From Promethearchaeota archaeon (GTDB taxonomy: Archaea > Asgardarchaeota > Lokiarchaeia > Sigyniarchaeales > SOKP01), in assembly GCA_048940645.1 (NCBI GenBank), contig JBHLOI010000031.1, positions 1-42,575 of the forward strand: a DNA stretch of 42,575 nucleotides, written 5' to 3'. Every line of letters begins with the position of its first letter. The stretch's first letter is position 1. The notes under the pieces were generated by a model. It was not told the origin of the DNA, did no database searches, and saw nothing but the letters and a program-made list of their open reading frames with translations. Shown here piece by piece: positions 5,701-15,580 of this stretch. The translations under genes were made by a program, and so were the position numbers.

Positions 5701-6990
5701 ATGAGAAATCGATTTATCATTGACAATAAGATTACAAATGAATTTGTTGAGACTTACACTAAAACAACATATCGGATCATAGGAAATAACAAACATTCTG
5801 CGATCAAACCATGTCATTGGCTTGAACAGAGATTAATGACAGGAAGAGATAATAGAAATTGCTATAAAGGAGTTTTTGGGGTTAAAAGTCATAGATGTTT
5901 ACAGAATACACCATCTCTACCTTTCTGTAACCATCAATGTGTTTTTTGTTGGAGAGATATTGAAGTAGGAGGGCTTGGAAACGAGTTCATAGTTAAACCA
6001 GACGATCCCAAAGAATTAATTGAAGAAATGATCCGTCATCAACAGGATATTATTAAAAATCACTTACCATTAAGAAGATATCTTGATAATTATGAGATAA
6101 TGATCAATTTGCTTCATTTCATGGTTAAAGCTAATACAGACCAAAATCTAAATTCCCTTTCAAAAATTCTTCAAGTTAGTAAGAATAAAATTGAAAGGGC
6201 TCTAAATCTCCTGAAAAATCAACACTTTATCAAACCAACTGATGAAACATTAAAGAGTTTCAGAATAGATGAAGAAATCTCATGTTGCATAGATTCTCGA
6301 GAAGAAATTGAAACTTTAATTAATAGAGAATTAACTAATCCTGATGATATTATGCAAACGCATAGTGAGGCGATGTATCCAAATCATGCAGCCATATCTC
6401 TTGACGGTGAACCATTACTTTATCCATTGATGAGCGATCTTGTTAGAGAATTCCGAAATAATGGTATGACTTCCTTTATTGTCACTAATGGTACTTTACC
6501 TAAAAAATTAGAACAATTAGATTCATTACCAAGCCAATTATATCTTACTTTGCCAGCACCAGACGAAAAATTATATAAAAAAATTTGCCGTCCAATGATA
6601 AGAAATGGTTGGAATAGGATCATAACAAGTTTAGACCTACTAGAATCATTATCTTGCCGAAGTGTAGTACGATTAACTGCTGTTAAAGAGTTAAATTTGA
6701 ATGAGAATTTAATTAAAGATTATATTAAATTAGTAGAAAAAGCGAACCCAAACTTCTTTGAATTAAAGGGCTTCACACTCCAAGCAAAAGCTTTACTTAT
6801 TAAGAATAGGTTAAAAAGTGAGACACCAATTCAAGACTATTTTCCAGAATATGATTACTTAGAAAAAATTGCTCATAAATTTGAAGTAATGGGTAATTTT
6901 CCATTAATTTATAAGAACAAGTCAAGTAGAGATTTCTTGTTTGCCGTTAATTGGGAAAAAGGTAAAGACCCCATAATTAAAAATCCATAA
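5701..6990 (+). CDS. taw1: 4-demethylwyosine synthase (radical SAM), with internal insertion
   Basis: HSAIKPCHW, CYK...SHRCLQxTP, CNHQCVFCWR (CxxxCxxC), HAAISLDGEPLLYP, FIVTNG, QLYLTL. Confidence 0.92.
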   Translation: MRNRFIIDNKITNEFVETYTKTTYRIIGNNKHSAIKPCHWLEQRLMTGRDNRNCYKGVFGVKSHRCLQNTPSLPFCNHQCVFCWRDIEVGGLGNEFIVKPDDPKELIEEMIRHQQDIIKNHLPLRRYLDNYEIMINLLHFMVKANTDQNLNSLSKILQVSKNKIERALNLLKNQHFIKPTDETLKSFRIDEEISCCIDSREEIETLINRELTNPDDIMQTHSEAMYPNHAAISLDGEPLLYPLMSDLVREFRNNGMTSFIVTNGTLPKKLEQLDSLPSQLYLTLPAPDEKLYKKICRPMIRNGWNRIITSLDLLESLSCRSVVRLTAVKELNLNENLIKDYIKLVEKANPNFFELKGFTLQAKALLIKNRLKSETPIQDYFPEYDYLEKIAHKFEVMGNFPLIYKNKSSRDFLFAVNWEKGKDPIIKNP

Positions 6991-7035
6991 ATTAATATTG
7001 GCAAATAAATGGTTCAATATTAAGAGGTTTTTCTT

Positions 7036-8385
7036 TCACTTTTTTATGAGTGTTTGAGTAAATCTTTTTAAATATTCTATTACAGATATTTCGTTATTAC
7101 TAATCATTTGAAATATTTCTTTAAATTGATCTAAATTATTTCGGAGGATTTCATTAAATTTTTCAGAATCTAGATAATGATAAATTACATTTTTTACATT
7201 CAATTTTTCTTTATCAAACTTAGCTTCTTCTGGTTCAAACAAGTTAACTTCACCCTTGAATTGCTTTATATATGAATATAACTTTTCACAAAAATCATCG
7301 AATTCTTTTTCATTATATTCATGACCAAGCAATCTATCTAAATTATGCTCTCTTAGGTCCCCCCAATTTACATCCTTACCTTTTATTGGAATAATTTGAA
7401 TACTATGTTTGCGTGCTAATTCAAGTTCATGCACACAATCTATTGAATTGAACACGGATTTATTAGACGCAAAAAACAATAAGAGTTGGCATTTTGGAAC
7501 TGTTTCATTCATAAAATCATCAATATTTCCTGTTAAATCTGTTTCACAGTAGAATGCACTATATATTTCCTCTTGGTTCTGCAAAAATTCAGAAATTTCT
7601 TTTATGTGAAAATAATCAAAATCGGCAACAGCATGACTAAGAAATATATTTATACTTGCTTTTTGTTGGCAGAATTTTAATATCGATGGCAGATCTCTAG
7701 TTACTAATTTTTCCCATTCATCTTTCCAAAAGTTATTATCCAAATGAAGAAAGTTTAAATTTTTCAATTTCCATATCGTCCAAGGTAATTCGGATAAATT
7801 GTTATTACCCAATATTAATGATTCAATATCATTAAGTTCACCTATTGATTCAGGAATGCTATTCAATTGATTTGCTTTTAAATTTAACTTTTTAAGAGAG
7901 TTTAAATTACCAATATTATTAGGCAGATTTTTTAAATTATTTTCACTCAAATTTAATTTTTTTAATTTTTTTAAATTTCCAATAGATTCGGGTAATGATT
8001 TTAATTGATTCTGCTCCAATGTAACATTTTTTAGAAATTCTAATTTTCCGATAGATTCAGGAATTGAATTTAATTTATTCATACTTAAATTTAATTTTTT
8101 AAGATTTCTTAATTCCGATATTGATTCAGGGATTGTTTCTAATTTATTATCCGCTAAATTTAGCTTTTGAAGTGATTTAAATTTTAAAATTTGTTCTGGA
8201 AAGTTTGTTAATCCACAATTAAATAACCCAATTCCAATTACCTTACCGTTTTTAACCTCAATACCACATGTATCCATACTAATTTCATAAACTTGGCCAA
8301 AAGTTTTCATAATTATACTTTCTAAATTACAACAAGTCTTGATATCTTCAGAATTTAATCCTAATTTTTCATACTTTTCACTCAT
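7036..8385 (-). CDS. Leucine-rich repeat-TIR domain protein
   Basis: About 7-8 23-aa LRRs (LKKLNLxxNxLxxIPESIGxL); TIR from about aa 247 (IFLSHA...LLLFFAS..S..CVHEL..A...IIPI) with Glu320 at the catalytic position. Confidence 0.88.
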   Translation of the reverse strand: MSEKYEKLGLNSEDIKTCCNLESIIMKTFGQVYEISMDTCGIEVKNGKVIGIGLFNCGLTNFPEQILKFKSLQKLNLADNKLETIPESISELRNLKKLNLSMNKLNSIPESIGKLEFLKNVTLEQNQLKSLPESIGNLKKLKKLNLSENNLKNLPNNIGNLNSLKKLNLKANQLNSIPESIGELNDIESLILGNNNLSELPWTIWKLKNLNFLHLDNNFWKDEWEKLVTRDLPSILKFCQQKASINIFLSHAVADFDYFHIKEISEFLQNQEEIYSAFYCETDLTGNIDDFMNETVPKCQLLLFFASNKSVFNSIDCVHELELARKHSIQIIPIKGKDVNWGDLREHNLDRLLGHEYNEKEFDDFCEKLYSYIKQFKGEVNLFEPEEAKFDKEKLNVKNVIYHYLDSEKFNEILRNNLDQFKEIFQMISNNEISVIEYLKRFTQTLIKK

Positions 8386-8418
8386 TTTTTTATTTCAACC
8401 CTTAATTTAAGAAGGAAA

Positions 8419-11400
8419 TTAAATTAGATTTATTAACTTCTTGAAATCTTCTTTTTCTATAAAATTTTCAGCTTCTCGTCGTGTATCAAACATAGTATAC
8501 CCCGCAATTGCAATTATTAATGGATCTCCTTCACGAGTAGGTTTCTTAATCCAATAACCAGAAGAGGTTAGCATTTTATTTATGATATCTCGATCCATAT
8601 AATTAAAAATAAGCTCACCTACATTAGGAACTAAAGGAGTACCAAAAGGAATTAAAATGTCAACTTTTTTCTTAGGAGCAGCAGGTTCAATAGTGACTGT
8701 TGCATTAATTTCGTGTAAAATCTTATAATATATTTGATTTGCTGAGAATAAATCACCAGCACCACTAATAATATGAACCTTTAATCCTTCTGATTTAATC
8801 ATTGATCGAATCTTCTCATTAATTTCGGAGATTTTTGTATCAAATTTTTTTTTTTCATCCAAACGGTTCAATATTTCAAGAATATAAGAAATCTTTGATA
8901 AATAATCTCTAATATTAAAGATATGATGTTCATATGGTTCTAATAATTTAATTGCTTCATTATAATATTGAAATGCATTATCAAGTTTATTATTTAACTC
9001 AGACACTTCAGCGAGCCATTGTATTTCAGCGGCTGCCCACGATTTATTAGTTCCCATAAATGCATCAACAAGGATTTTTCTAACTTCATTAGCTTTATCA
9101 TATCTATTTGATATTTCGTGTTTATCTTGATTTGTCGCAAATAAAGCAGCAGCCTTCCATTGCCAAGAAGCTAATTCGACAGTACATTTGTTTTCAAATT
9201 TATCAATATTAGTTTTCAAATCGTCCATTAATTTGTTGTATAATTTTCCATTTTTAAAACGATAATCAGATGAATCTATTTTCTGAACTTCTAGAAGATG
9301 ACAGCCTATATTATAATAATCTGTAGCTGTAAGAAGATTTTCGGATTTTTCATGATAATTGCCAATAAATAGGTATAATTTAGCGATTGATTCAATATTA
9401 TTTCGCGCATAAAAATCAAATACAAGACGCTCGAGATCAGGAATTAAAGTTCTCTGAATATTTAGATCCACACTATTTAAATATTCAAGCACCTTGTCAA
9501 TATATTCTGTATTATCAATATATTCAGTTGCAGAAAGAAAATAGAATCGTTGAAGTACATTCTTAAGAAAAATTTTCAACCTTTTAATATTCGAAATCTC
9601 TTTTGCTCTTTCTAAATTTTTATTTAGTTCTACTTCAATTTTGTTAATCAATTCTAAAGTAAACTCATCATCATATTTTTTTTTGGGAGTGACTTCGTAA
9701 TATATGTCATGAGAAAGAGAATAAATATAACTATCTTTATCTCCAAGTATACCTCCATCGCCTAAGATAATCTCATCTTTTTCTTCTATAATTAATTTAT
9801 CTTTTAGTAATTCATGTAATATCTCGTCAATACTAGATATATCTACATTTAGCATATTCTTTAAGGTTGTTTTTATAAGCCATAATGGCGGATTTAATTC
9901 AAATGTCTTATTAAGACTAACAATACTACTCCAAATATTTCTTTCTGCTTCTGTTCTTATGTTATACACAAGATTTTTAACTGTGTCGATGATATCATCA
10001 CTAATTTGAACATTTTCCATATCATCTGTAGTAAATTGTTCCTTCCGATTTTTTTCTAAATAAAGTAAAAAATTATCTGCGAAAATTGGATATATCCATC
10101 CTCTACTCGAGATTCTCTTTATTAGGGTGTTATACGCAGGTTTTGTAAAATTATCATTAGATAAATTATGAATTTCAAAAAATTTTTCTACTGATTCATC
10201 TGTTAAGCTTATTCCTTCAAGCCAAGTTTTCTGCACTTTCCAATGGTGTGGTATCTTTCCTTCTTTAATGATGCTTTTATATGATTTTGTGCGTAAGAAC
10301 ATTAAAACCCTTAAATTTTCCTTTAACTTTGTTGGACAACCAGATTCAAATAAATTATGAATGATTTCTATTAAATTTTCAACATTCATATCAGATCTAC
10401 TTTGTTCTTCATCAAGGACCAATACGAGATGACGATGTTTTTCTGCCAATGTTTTCAATTCCTCATGCATTCGCAATATAAATTCTGTGTTATTAATTCC
10501 CTTTAGAAACCTTTTATCTATTTCAACGAATTTGATATCTCTATCATTTTGAGATAACAAATATTTTAAGTTAGTCTTTCCCATTCCTGCAGAGCCTAAA
10601 ATGATATTAAATTCATCATCTTGAATTTTTTTAAGTAATAAATCTTCAATTCCGAAATAAATAAGATTATTAATAATTTTTGGATCTACAACAATTGGTA
10701 TAATAATAGGATCGTTTTTTAAAGCTCTTAATTGAAATGGTTGTTCAATTGGTTGTATAATTAATTTTTCAACATTATTTTTTAATTCATTACTAAATGA
10801 AAAAGGTATAGTGTTTGGATCTCCAAACATCAAAAAAGATGCCCAAGCATGTGAACTTTTAGAATTATATAATTCATTTTTAGATTCAAGCATACATTCT
10901 CCTATAGTTTTATCTTCTTGTAATAAATTTTGGTAAAAAGAATAAGCGAAATTTATAGCATCTTTATTATCAATTGGCCATATAGAACCGATAAATGTTT
11001 TTGTTCCTGCCTGAATAAATGCTTCTGCCAATCCAGATACTTGCTTTTCTCCTTCCAATTCTATATTTGCTTGAGCACTTTCACAAGCATTTATAAAAAC
11101 AATTTCAGGTAAATGTTCAGTGTATTTCGAAATCTCTTTTGCAGTTATTTCTTTATCGGCTAGTTTTATTCCACTCTTTTCTGGCATTTTTTCATCAAAA
11201 AAAGCATGACCGGAATAATGAATAATGTCAAATTCATTTTTTTTCATTAATTCGATTATATTTACGGTCGTAGCTTCAGATCCTATTAATGTTGATGTTT
11301 TTATATAACCTTGGTTGATTGCTGTTTTTAATTCTAACTTTATATTTTTAATTTCTTCAATAGAAGATTCCAAATCACCTGACGGGTCACCAATAAATAA

Positions 11401-11862
11401 TATGTGAATTATATCTTTATCTTTTTTCTCAAATTCAACACCTATAATCTTGCCAGTAATAATTCTTCCGATTGAGTTATTTAAACATGCAGGTTTATTA
11501 TCAATAGAAAGTAATTCCCAGGGAACACCTGGATCATTCGTTAAAATTAATAAATTATGATATTTTTCAAGTAATTCCTTTAAATCCTTTACACATTGTA
11601 TTCCCATTAATTTTTGTATTGAAATACCGAGTTTTATTAAAAAGTTGTGCATATAATCTTCAGATTCGGTTAAAAGCTCACCAAGAAGTATCTTTTTTCG
11701 AATATCCATTACCTTATTAATTACTTTTTCTCTTTCATCTTGAGTATTTAATCTTTCATAGGGTTTGATTATGGTCATAGATGGTGGTTGAATTTTAAAT
11801 ATATATGAGCCTTTAAATCCATCTATATGGAATTGGATTATATCGTTCATTTTGATTCCCAT
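8419..11862 (-). CDS. CHAT (caspase-like) protease-P-loop NTPase-TPR-like helical repeat protein
   Basis: CHAT motifs VPWELL, FDIIHYSGH (His219), VFINACES (Cys260), GLAEAFIQAG, FIGSIWPI, WASFLMFGDP; Walker A GSAGMGKT (423-430); Walker B LVLVLDEE; C-terminal TPR-like helices (AFQYYNEAIKL). Confidence 0.88.
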   Translation of the reverse strand: MGIKMNDIIQFHIDGFKGSYIFKIQPPSMTIIKPYERLNTQDEREKVINKVMDIRKKILLGELLTESEDYMHNFLIKLGISIQKLMGIQCVKDLKELLEKYHNLLILTNDPGVPWELLSIDNKPACLNNSIGRIITGKIIGVEFEKKDKDIIHILFIGDPSGDLESSIEEIKNIKLELKTAINQGYIKTSTLIGSEATTVNIIELMKKNEFDIIHYSGHAFFDEKMPEKSGIKLADKEITAKEISKYTEHLPEIVFINACESAQANIELEGEKQVSGLAEAFIQAGTKTFIGSIWPIDNKDAINFAYSFYQNLLQEDKTIGECMLESKNELYNSKSSHAWASFLMFGDPNTIPFSFSNELKNNVEKLIIQPIEQPFQLRALKNDPIIIPIVVDPKIINNLIYFGIEDLLLKKIQDDEFNIILGSAGMGKTNLKYLLSQNDRDIKFVEIDKRFLKGINNTEFILRMHEELKTLAEKHRHLVLVLDEEQSRSDMNVENLIEIIHNLFESGCPTKLKENLRVLMFLRTKSYKSIIKEGKIPHHWKVQKTWLEGISLTDESVEKFFEIHNLSNDNFTKPAYNTLIKRISSRGWIYPIFADNFLLYLEKNRKEQFTTDDMENVQISDDIIDTVKNLVYNIRTEAERNIWSSIVSLNKTFELNPPLWLIKTTLKNMLNVDISSIDEILHELLKDKLIIEEKDEIILGDGGILGDKDSYIYSLSHDIYYEVTPKKKYDDEFTLELINKIEVELNKNLERAKEISNIKRLKIFLKNVLQRFYFLSATEYIDNTEYIDKVLEYLNSVDLNIQRTLIPDLERLVFDFYARNNIESIAKLYLFIGNYHEKSENLLTATDYYNIGCHLLEVQKIDSSDYRFKNGKLYNKLMDDLKTNIDKFENKCTVELASWQWKAAALFATNQDKHEISNRYDKANEVRKILVDAFMGTNKSWAAAEIQWLAEVSELNNKLDNAFQYYNEAIKLLEPYEHHIFNIRDYLSKISYILEILNRLDEKKKFDTKISEINEKIRSMIKSEGLKVHIISGAGDLFSANQIYYKILHEINATVTIEPAAPKKKVDILIPFGTPLVPNVGELIFNYMDRDIINKMLTSSGYWIKKPTREGDPLIIAIAGYTMFDTRREAENFIEKEDFKKLINLI

Positions 11863-11967
11863 TTTCAGTAACGTATATTTCTTATTTTACAAGGTTATAA
11901 AAATTTATGTATTGTCTAAAAATCTGAGTTGTTTTTTATAAGAGAATCTAAAAAGAATTATTTATTT

Positions 11968-12612
11968 TTAAGATTTATCTGTTTTAGATAAATATAGATG
12001 AATAAAATTATTTATTTTACCCAGATTTGTTTTTTTCAGAGCAGAAAATTCTAAATAAGGGATTTTAATTTTATTTTGATTGTTGATAAAATCATCTAAA
12101 TTCGTTATATCAATTCTATAGTATTTAGCGTTCTCTATGAAAAAGGTAATTATTCGTTTTTTATCAATATTTGAAACTTTATCTATCTTATTGATAACTA
12201 TTAGGAGTGGAATGCTAAATTCTTGTATAAACTTTATCAATTCAAAACTCAATGGAATTGTTATTTGGCTTTTAATAAAATATTTAGTAATTTCATCTTC
12301 AATTCTTAGAATATTAATAACAACTAAAGCAAGAAAATAGTCGAAATGATGCTTTTCAATATGAGTTACAATTTGCTGTTTAATGTGTTCTTGTCTTCTA
12401 TGACTCGAATGCCTGATATATCCAAAACCAGGTAAATCGATAATTTTATAAGGCAATTGAGGTTGTTCAACTTGTTTTATTAATAATGTACTTCCAGGAT
12501 CTTTACCAGTTTTTCCTTTATATTTACTTGGTTGAGGGAGTAAAAGTCTTGTTATTGAGCTTTTTCCTGCATTTGAATTCCCAATAATCAATAGAGAAGG
12601 TTTTACTTTCAT
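11968..12612 (-). CDS. engB: EngB/YihA-family GTP-binding protein
   Basis: GNSNAGKS, PGST, DLPGFG, NKIDK, FSA. Confidence 0.85.
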   Translation of the reverse strand: MKVKPSLLIIGNSNAGKSSITRLLLPQPSKYKGKTGKDPGSTLLIKQVEQPQLPYKIIDLPGFGYIRHSSHRRQEHIKQQIVTHIEKHHFDYFLALVVINILRIEDEITKYFIKSQITIPLSFELIKFIQEFSIPLLIVINKIDKVSNIDKKRIITFFIENAKYYRIDITNLDDFINNQNKIKIPYLEFSALKKTNLGKINNFIHLYLSKTDKS

Positions 12613-13792: not shown

Positions 13793-14359
13793 ATGGAAAA
13801 AATCAAGTATAAATTTAAAATCCCTATAATCGGAGATGGAGCTGTAGGTAAAACATCACTTATTGAAAAATATACTAAAGGAATATTTCAAGAAGAATAT
13901 ATCTCTACTCTAGGAGCACAATTTACTCAACACGAGGAATTAATTGATGGAATTGAATTCAAACTTATTTTTTGGGATATTGCTGGCCAACCTGCATTTG
14001 AGAGGATGCGGCAAAAATTTTACTCAGGTAGTAATGGTGCTATCATTGTCTTTTCACATTCACCCGATGAAAGAAAAAGTTTTGAGAGTGTAGATAAATG
14101 GATCTCTGAAGTTAGAGAACATTGCGGTAGAATTCCAGTTATTCTATTTGGAAATAAAATAGATTTGGTAAATGAGGAAGTTTTAGCTACAAATGGAGAT
14201 TTAGATACATCCGATGCTAATATAGAAAAATACATTAAAGAACATGGAATTGTGGATTATTTCAAAACAAGTGCATTAACAGGTCAGAGAGTAAATCAAG
14301 CTTTTCATACATTAGTAAAAAAAATACAGTCTTTGGAAGAATTTTTAAGAAATTTATAA
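13793..14359 (+). CDS. Ras-superfamily small GTPase (Rab-like), copy 1
   Basis: [25 protein letters not shown], KTSA. Confidence 0.92.
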   Translation: [188 protein letters not shown]

Positions 14360-14420
14360 AGTAAAAGAAAAAGTAGATATGATTTAATTTGAGTATTTAT
14401 TACTATTGTAAGGAATAAAG

Positions 14421-14951
14421 ATGGCCGAAATTAAATTCAAAATAGTAGTTGTTGGAGATGCAGCAGTAGGAAAGACATCCTTAATCCGAAAGTATACAAA
14501 GGGAGCATTTGAAGAGGATTATATTGCTACACTTGGTGCACAATTTACTCAGCATGAGGAATTAATCGATGGGGTAAATTTTAAACTTATTTTTTGGGAT
14601 ATCGCAGGACAACCGACATTTGAAAGGATGCGACAAAAGTTCTACTCTGGTAGTAGTGGAGCAATCATAGTTTTCTCTCATTCATCTGATGAGACAAAAA
14701 CTTTTAAGAGTGTAGATAAATGGCTCTCTGAAGTTAGAGAACATTGCGGTAAAATTCCAGTTGTTCTATTTGGAAATAAAATAGATTTAGTCGATGAGGG
14801 AATATTAGCTACGGATGAAGGCTTAAAAACAAGCGATTCTAATGTTGAAAAATACATTAAAGAAAATGGTTTTATGGGGTATTATAAAACCAGTGCATTA
14901 ACCGGTCAGGGAGTAAACCAAGCTTTTCATATGTTAACAAAAAAGATATAA
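14421..14951 (+). CDS. Ras-superfamily small GTPase (Rab-like), copy 2
   Basis: [25 protein letters not shown], KTSA. Confidence 0.92.
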   Translation: [176 protein letters not shown]

Positions 14952-15040
14952 AAAATAACTCAAATTTTTATTTTCTATTTCTAAAGATTTAAAAAATCCG
15001 ACTATTACTATAAATTCAAATATTTTGATAGGTAATTTGA

Positions 15041-15580
15041 ATGGCTGATATTAAATTTAAGATAACAGTAATTGGAGATGCTGCGGTAGGGAAAACTTCT
15101 CTTATTAAAAAATACACTAAAGGTGAATTTCAAAAAGAATATATTTCTACTCTTGGAACTCAATTTACTAGACATGAAGAAGTAATTGATGGGGTTTCTA
15201 TTGAATTGATTCTCTGGGATATAGCAGGACAAGCAGCATTTGAGGTTATGCGGCAAAACTTTTATACTGGTAGCAGTGGAGCAATAATTGTTTTTTCACA
15301 TTCACCTGATCAAAGAAAAAGTTTTAATAACGTAAATAAATGGCTCTCCGAAGTTAAAGAGCATTGTGGGAATATCCAGATTTCACTATTTGGAAACAAA
15401 ATTGATTTGGTAAATAACGAAGAATTGCAAACTTCAGAATCTCGTGATTCCAATGTAGAAGATTACGTGAAGGAACATAATTTTCTAGGTTACTATAAAA
15501 CCAGTGCTTTAACAGGTCAAGGTGTAAATGATGCCTTTTATACGTTGGCAAAAAGACTATATTCTTTAGGAAATTATTAG
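15041..15580 (+). CDS. Ras-superfamily small GTPase (Rab-like), copy 3
   Basis: [25 protein letters not shown], KTSA. Confidence 0.92.
   Translation: [179 protein letters not shown]

Follow-up and report, generated by a model that had tools for sequence, protein, structure and literature searches.

A CHAT protease joined to a predicted STAND NTPase, and its LRR-TIR companion gene, in Asgard archaea

Domain architecture and predicted fold

We analysed a stretch of 42,575 nucleotides (nt) from a Promethearchaeota archaeon (contig JBHLOI010000031.1; hereafter the window), which belongs to a 3.83-Mb genome, 89.6% complete, of a Loki-type Asgard archaeon with a cluster of Ras-like GTPases. One uninterrupted open reading frame on the minus strand fills positions 8419-11862. 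It encodes a protein of 1147 amino acids (aa) in which a caspase-like CHAT protease is followed by a putative STAND switch, helical repeats and a terminal alpha/beta domain (Table 1). An earlier note, made from the bare sequence, had described this reading frame and a set of motifs, all of which were found in their places: Walker A GSAGMGKT (aa 423-430), Walker B LVLVLDEE (aa 479-486), LRT (aa 523-525), IYP (aa 590-592) and SLSHDIYYE (aa 715-723). Most homologues start at Met5 (position 11850), which may be the real start codon. A promoter scan with a sigma-70 model stayed at chance level; the sigma-70 consensus is unsuited to archaea. No transmembrane segment is predicted in the protein (best 19-residue hydropathy 1.43).

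Table 1. Features of the locus and its flanks in the window
Feature	Position	Strand	Remarks
CHAT-STAND-TPR gene with C-terminal domain (1147-aa protein P0001)	8419..11862	-	start possibly 11850
N-terminal alpha/beta extension of CHAT module, aa 1-105	11548..11862	-	model and conservation
CHAT caspase-like protease, aa 106-352	10807..11547	-	Pfam, SAVED-CHAT structure match, dyad kept
Catalytic codon His219	11206..11208	-	
Catalytic codon Cys260	11083..11085	-	
Predicted STAND nucleotide-binding domain, aa 385-551	10210..10710	-	motifs, alignment, model, Foldseek
Walker A	10573..10596	-	
Walker B	10405..10428	-	
Sensor-1 Arg524	10291..10293	-	
Helical domain 1, aa 552-620	10003..10209	-	invariant Pro592 (10087..10089) in GxP position, Gly absent
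Winged-helix domain, aa 621-728	9679..10002	-	invariant His718 (9709..9711); alignment, model, 2qen match
Helical arm, aa 729-820	9403..9678	-	limits taken from model
TPR-like solenoid, aa 821-1020	8803..9402	-	presumed sensor; weak Pfam TPR_1, TPR structure matches
C-terminal alpha/beta domain, aa 1021-1147	8422..8802	-	S-layer-anchor / glycosidase-domain-2-like fold
LRR-TIR gene, 449 aa	7036..8385	-	co-oriented, 33 nt downstream of STAND gene
TIR domain of LRR-TIR gene	7231..7659	-	invariant Glu320 at 7426..7428
Radical-SAM gene	5701..6990	+	downstream flank of insertion site, outside system
EngB-like GTPase gene	11968..12612	-	upstream flank of insertion site, outside system

CHAT is the sole domain that Pfam recognises in this protein (PF12770, residues 112-348, E=1.2e-31, 110.7 bits against a cut-off of 24). 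The catalytic residues picked out in the earlier note, His219 and Cys260, are kept in 18/18 and 19/19, respectively, of the homologous rows covering the position. Furthermore, the closest protease structure is SAVED-CHAT (8tl0; Z 18.7, root-mean-square deviation 2.8, 185 residues aligned), a defence protease in an activated filament, followed by the anti-sigma factor DdvA (Z 15.8). The Pfam score above the cut-off, the caspase fold and the His-Cys dyad place the protein among the CHAT peptidases.

A search of 5.8 billion proteins yielded 20 homologues that cover most of the length at 46-100% identity, and all of those with a taxon name are from Asgard archaea. One apparent CHAT-less form of the family (P0021) was rejected, since its frame is open up to the contig start. 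In the alignment, K429, D484, E485, E486, R524, P592 and H718 are invariant, so that the motifs are no chance likeness; this bears out the reading of the two Walker motifs, of LRT as a sensor-1-like element and of the His in SLSHDIYYE as MHD-like. A conserved His in the winged helix is part of the definition of STAND proteins and replaces sensor 2 (PMC2323615). The assignment of the YP motif to the GxP-like position holds for the proline, which is the residue stressed in this motif (PMC2323615), but the Gly two residues earlier is replaced by Ile or Met in 20/20 sequences. The sensor-1 Arg524 is preceded by Phe-Leu/Phe and lacks the Thr-Thr, with neither Thr nor Ser before it. For the hhGRExE motif before Walker A, G404 is invariant and E406 is present in 19/20 sequences, but position 405 is Ile, Val or Ser and never Arg. 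These three STAND motifs are degenerate.

Matches to the NACHT or NB-ARC families of Pfam were not listed at E<=0.1 in 17 members. Weak matches to nSTAND3, AAA_22, AAA_14 and AAA_16 occur in the family, and unrelated P-loop proteins score likewise; those to nSTAND3 were left unused, because UvrA and Ras obtain them too. For the NTPase-TPR part, no sequence relatives beyond about 20 Asgard proteins were found by phmmer in 1.84 billion representatives, by a word-limited profile search against longer proteins or among PDB sequences. A tblastn search detected no paralogue of any domain elsewhere in the genome, and no relative of the protein is encoded on any viral contig searched. By these comparisons, the protein seems to represent a deeply diverged STAND family restricted to Asgard archaea, for which Pfam offers no annotation except CHAT.

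The earlier note had proposed structure prediction and a Foldseek comparison with STAND ATPases as a check. We modelled the full-length protein with AlphaFold2 (mean predicted local distance difference test, pLDDT, 77.8; predicted template modelling score 0.47; domain packing unreliable). The order in the model is CHAT, nucleotide-binding domain (NBD), helical domain, winged helix, arm, TPR solenoid and final alpha/beta domain. R524 directly follows the strand 517-523, P592 opens the helix 591-604, and H718 comes after the wing strands 691-695 and 712-716. STANDs head the Foldseek results, with PH0952 (2.9e-11), SAMD9 (5.7e-10), Avs3 (1.7e-7), Avs5 (1.1e-6), CED-4 (1.1e-6), MalT (2e-6, rank 10) and Apaf-1. 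Using VIA-align, Avs5 was aligned at Z 13.5 over residues 383-978 and the archaeal ATPase 2qen at Z 11.3 over residues 392-727, while TPR structures aligned at Z 10-13 over residues 820-1029. The nearest ESM-feature neighbours of aa 360-735 are NPHP3_N, AAA_16, nSTAND3, NB-ARC and WHD_MalT clusters (0.93-0.96). The central region of the model folds as a STAND, and the structural ground for refutation named in the earlier note therefore falls away. Fold searches and protein-language-model neighbours support the effector-NOD-sensor order suggested earlier, and the protein almost certainly belongs to the STAND NTPase superfamily.

The TPR-like helices named in the earlier note span only aa ~821-1020, where 10/20 family members give a weak Pfam TPR_1 match; aa 1021-1147 constitute a separate alpha/beta domain. 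Folded alone (pLDDT 89.5), this domain resembles the S-layer anchor domain of Methanococcus (9fsa; Z 9.4, top of the Foldseek results at E=1.3e-3) and domain 2 of glycosidases (GH67/84/115; Z 8-9.7, with 1k9d at Z 9.7); the Z values are modest, and about 110 residues are aligned at 7-19% identity. It has no Pfam match, S_layer_C included, and its ESM-feature score to S_layer_C (0.83) is a lead only. We found the domain on no other protein in the searches made. Within the family, it shows the highest mean identity (67%); the remaining catalytic and repeat domains are at 59-64%, and the N-terminal extension is lowest at 47%. In the S-layer anchor, dimerisation is brought about by the 9fsa domain (PMC11410804), so that dimerisation may be considered as a role of aa 1021-1147, as may capping or ligand binding, but a shared fold alone shows no function. 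The protein carries a conserved tail domain without STAND precedent in the searches and literature covered.

Distribution, selection and the LRR-TIR gene

The family falls into two well-supported clades, A, which includes the gene at 8419-11862, and B. In clade A, a co-oriented LRR-TIR gene follows about 20-60 nt downstream of the STAND gene in 16/16 distinct loci with readable downstream DNA. The product of the copy in the window matches TIR_2 at E=1.7e-5 (1.5e-8 in a homologue). The pair occupies five different genomic sites: the stretch that separates the EngB-like gene from the radical-SAM gene, as in the window, a position before an alanyl-tRNA-synthetase-like gene (L044, L061, L063), and the loci L041, L045 and L056. 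The 16 loci are kin and therefore do not amount to 16 independent events, so that the relocations weigh more. Identities of the STAND protein and its partner to the pair in the window drop in step (82/77, 74/64, 66/65 and 55/42%), and within the genus a full-length partner is present only in STAND carriers. The LRR-TIR gene is co-inherited with the clade-A STAND gene as one cassette.

No TIR gene adjoins the seven clade-B loci, which are Helarchaeota-labelled and others; this result holds for the DNA around the STAND gene. LRR-TIR paralogues are common in relatives from the genus without the STAND gene, and in the TIR tree 13 partners are grouped (96/94), while the tree does not resolve the two most distant partners. 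In L041 (3580-4950, plus strand), a single in-frame TAG interrupts the TIR domain of the partner next to an intact STAND gene; this codon reflects a pseudogene or an assembly error. A complex prediction for STAND aa 729-1147 with the LRR-TIR protein scored 0.00, which is evidence neither way. TIR proteins as such form a large Lokiarchaeal family (L071-L090; G000:C92, C28) with up to 15 matches per genome. Their C-terminal TIR domain is joined either to LRRs or to proteins that have a hydrophobic N-terminus (395-1400 aa) and resemble membrane receptors.

Among 400 genomes of the phylum, six contain the STAND gene, all from one genus. The two flanking genes are at most 100 nt apart in 23/35 scorable genomes of the same genus without the STAND gene, and unrelated small genes lie between them in nine of the remaining genomes, which were read at the site. 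The STAND gene is rare, inserted and relocated within genomes. The gap between the flanks (6991-11967 in the window; the same site in L022-L032, L034, L037 and L057) has seen repeated gene gain and loss: it is empty or contains a HAD-like gene, an ICMT-like and PadR pair, membrane proteins or the STAND cassette. We also determined the ratio of nonsynonymous to synonymous substitution rates (dN/dS), which is 0.18 overall and 0.15-0.23 across the domains, with 0.23 in the TPRs. Every domain is under purifying selection. The corresponding values are 0.14-0.26 for neighbouring genes and 0.05 for EF-2.

The neighbours encode EF-2, IF-2, small GTPases, UvrAB and other housekeeping functions. Three tandem Ras-family small GTPase genes (13793-15580, plus strand) lie between the EF-2 and EngB-like genes, one more than the two found there in L001, L003, L004 and L012. 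L002 and L004 carry the titles Odinarchaeota and Hodarchaeota, share 89-90% identity in this region and correspond to contigs from genomes (G257, G260) of the same genus as the window; these titles are seemingly mislabelled. A probable second STAND lies 3 kb from the cassette in L041, encoded by a gene (7779-10844, minus strand) whose 1021-aa product combines DUF4062, which is TIR-like, with a Walker A motif. Directly upstream of the clade-B member in L006 lies a gene of 994 aa (6851-9835, plus strand) whose product bears a Cas12f1-like/TnpB domain at its C-terminus, and a 214-aa gene takes this place in L008 and L009; in all three loci, the constant convergent downstream neighbour is a KaiC-like ATPase of 605 aa that has two V4R domains. 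In L010, 5 kb from another clade-B member and beside actin-like genes, there is a Peptidase_C14/C13 gene (18641-19870, minus strand) for a protein of 409 aa whose N-terminus is hydrophobic. The only other CHAT-like gene in the genome of the window (G000:C36:25346-27931, minus strand; L040) encodes 861 aa with a helical N-terminus and seemingly has neither of the catalytic residues; the gene immediately upstream of it looks actin-related by eye.

Proposed function and alternatives

In our analysis, the most likely mechanism is the one that the earlier note had put forward, in which ligand-induced oligomerisation would activate the fused protease. Based on STAND biology (PMC6468293, PMC2323615), the resting protein would be monomeric, with His718, the arm and the TPRs keeping it closed around ADP. 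The TPRs and the C-terminal domain would bind a foreign molecule, which is probably a viral protein with a conserved fold, ADP would be swapped for ATP, and the NODs would oligomerise. The CHAT domains gathered in this way would then cut host proteins and cause cell arrest or death. The STAND protein should be able to act alone, as clade B has no adjoining partner, and in clade A the LRR-TIR protein from the same cassette could either add a second immune function or serve as a substrate further downstream. Proteolysis under the control of the switch is rather probable, and a role in defence is probable as well; to the complete reading, a cytoplasmic single-chain autonomous defence sensor of the NLR/Avs type, we assign a probability of about 0.5.

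A defence sensor is favoured because of the STAND fold matches, the invariant motifs, the SAVED-CHAT-like protease, the rarity and insertion of the gene, the LRR-TIR neighbour and the lack of a transmembrane segment. STAND clades have been classed as defence-associated by their immune-type effector domains (PMC13581612). Several observations weigh against this reading. There is no defence island, and housekeeping genes flank the locus in the window and most other loci. Clade B even retains two stable housekeeping neighbourhoods. None of the nine window proteins tested, the LRR-TIR protein among them, matched PADLOC. The substitution rates resemble those of the neighbours and give no sign of an arms race, and PH0952, which heads the structural matches, is MalT-like and not a known defence protein.

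Housekeeping neighbourhoods, conserved synteny in clade B and uniform purifying selection would suit a non-immune switch, that is, a MalT/PH0952-like STAND that responds to a metabolite or an envelope-derived ligand with limited regulatory proteolysis, not cell death. The Foldseek ranks of PH0952 and MalT and the position of DdvA as second-best protease match point in the same direction, as does the occurrence of the C-terminal fold in S-layer and glycan-active proteins; moreover, STAND clades with and without a role in defence are intermingled (PMC13581612). Nevertheless, we consider such a switch unlikely, given a rare gene that is inserted and relocated together with an LRR-TIR gene, a protein without DNA-binding output domain and the absence of any regulon or substrate gene conserved across both clades. 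The same LRR-TIR gene raises another possibility, a two-gene pathway restricted to clade A. In one version, the LRR-TIR protein would sense the invader and make an NAD-derived signal, which the STAND protein would read, perhaps via its C-terminal domain, and turn on its protease. This would be like type IV Thoeris, with a STAND switch inserted between. In the other version, the activated protease would cut the LRR off the TIR and thereby release a free NADase. Such coupling agrees with the constant position of the partner at five sites, the parallel fall of identities, the restriction of the full-length partner to STAND carriers within the genus, the invariant Glu320 of the TIR and a precedent for TIR-to-caspase signalling (bioRxiv 10.1101/2024.10.24.620036). 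But clade B has the same four-part protein, including the C-terminal domain, without an adjoining TIR gene, and in L041 the STAND gene is intact despite the stop codon in its partner. In addition, LRR-TIR paralogues on their own are common among relatives that lack the STAND gene, and not all partners are resolved as one clade by the TIR tree. Coupling of the two proteins is improbable in our view, and it is doubtful that they represent an undescribed Asgard immune pathway, with LRR-TIR and a caspase-armed STAND in series and the C-terminal domain as a new STAND input module.

The NTPase could also be an AAA+ module, either Clp NBD1-like or Cdc6/Orc1-like, which would make the protein an ATP-driven protease or remodeller. 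The NBD1 of Clp/Hsp104 aligns over aa 382-621, and its Z of 11-12.6 in VIA-align is level with that of the STANDs. In Foldseek, Cdc6/Orc1 turn up at rank 16 and below, and three STAND motifs are degenerate. However, most Clp matches end near residue 620, before the winged helix, and only STANDs align on through winged helix, arm and TPRs (Avs5 383-978, 2qen 392-727). The arginine finger of AAA+ proteins sits between strand 4 and strand 5, a segment without a conserved Arg in this family. The invariant winged-helix His, the STAND substitute for sensor 2 (PMC2323615), also speaks against an AAA+ module, which we regard as very improbable. The defence sensor remains our preferred reading.

Comparison with known systems

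The earlier note had called the architecture apoptosome/inflammasome-like. The NOD fold is indeed shared with Apaf-1/CED-4 apoptosomes and NLR inflammasomes (8jol, 3j2t, 1z6t), and a caspase-fold protease is the presumed output. But apoptosomes and inflammasomes recruit a separate C14 caspase via CARD/PYD, whereas the Asgard CHAT is fused and the presumed sensor is a TPR region. An apoptosome-like ring is not implied: among the structures closest to the protein, Avs5 forms filaments, SAMD9 forms dimers, and PH0952 and MalT are regulators outside immunity. Likewise, there is no evidence of apoptosome ancestry or of eukaryotic proteins descending from the Asgard family.

Avs3, Avs4, Avs5 and human SAMD9 (8dgc, 8dgf, 9jap, 9zjs) have the same effector-NOD-arm-TPR layout and are among the best fold matches, but at 10-12% identity. 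Their effectors differ (nuclease, SIR2), the Asgard TPR region is shorter (~200 aa), and the defence-island neighbourhood typical of Avs is absent; no Avs profile was matched in PADLOC 2.0, which predates most Avs families. Archaeal PH0952, the best Foldseek match (6mfv), and MalT share the NOD-arm-TPR part (PMC6468293). Identity is 13%, and MalT activates transcription, whereas the Asgard protein carries a protease and lacks a DNA-binding output. In type IV Thoeris, a TIR gene likewise lies beside a gene for a caspase-fold protease (bioRxiv 10.1101/2024.10.24.620036). This system is defined by a TIR and a caspase-like effector without NTPase, and a STAND switch occurs neither in it nor in SAVED-CHAT. 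In the Asgard case, protease and STAND form one chain, and the TIR is fused to LRRs and does not adjoin the STAND gene in clade B, half of the family. The archaeal S-layer anchor domain (9fsa, PMC11410804) and domain 2 of GH20/67/84/115 have the same fold as aa 1021-1147 but differ in their setting, since in the Asgard protein this fold caps a presumably cytoplasmic STAND sensor. Taken together, the protein works like an Avs or NLR in its design; membership in Avs, the NACHT/NB-ARC NLRs or Thoeris is not established. The family is described nowhere in the literature searched, a scope outside of which most subscription papers and supplements lie, and may be contained unnamed in the 359,879-sequence STAND set of PMC13581612.

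Bacteria and fungi already provide examples of a protease, a STAND and a sensor in a single chain. CHAT is fused to NOD and repeats in multicellular bacteria (bioRxiv 10.1101/2020.01.06.895854), bacterial Apaf-1 orthologues can bear caspases (PMC13581612), and bacterial NACHT proteins carry peptidase effectors (bioRxiv 10.1101/2022.07.19.500537). A fungal protein with CHAT, NACHT and TPR Pfam matches was a weak match in our homologue search. These proteins show the same order of protease, STAND and repeat sensor in one chain, but their NTPases are NB-ARC, NACHT or AP-ATPase, none of which the Asgard NTPase matches above the Pfam cut-off, and they lack the terminal alpha/beta domain. Mutating the winged-helix His can switch STANDs on (bioRxiv 10.1101/2022.07.19.500537), so that the output is testable in a laboratory host without knowing the virus. 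This offers a direct route to asking whether caspase-like regulated cell death occurs in Asgard archaea and whether TIR and STAND are linked in them. New here, and missed by the earlier note, are the Asgard restriction of a diverged STAND lineage, the conserved tail domain and the LRR-TIR partner that travels with it. Should the pathway in series be true, it would echo both the TIR-to-helper-NLR relays of plants and the caspase platforms of animals in the prokaryotes closest to eukaryotes.

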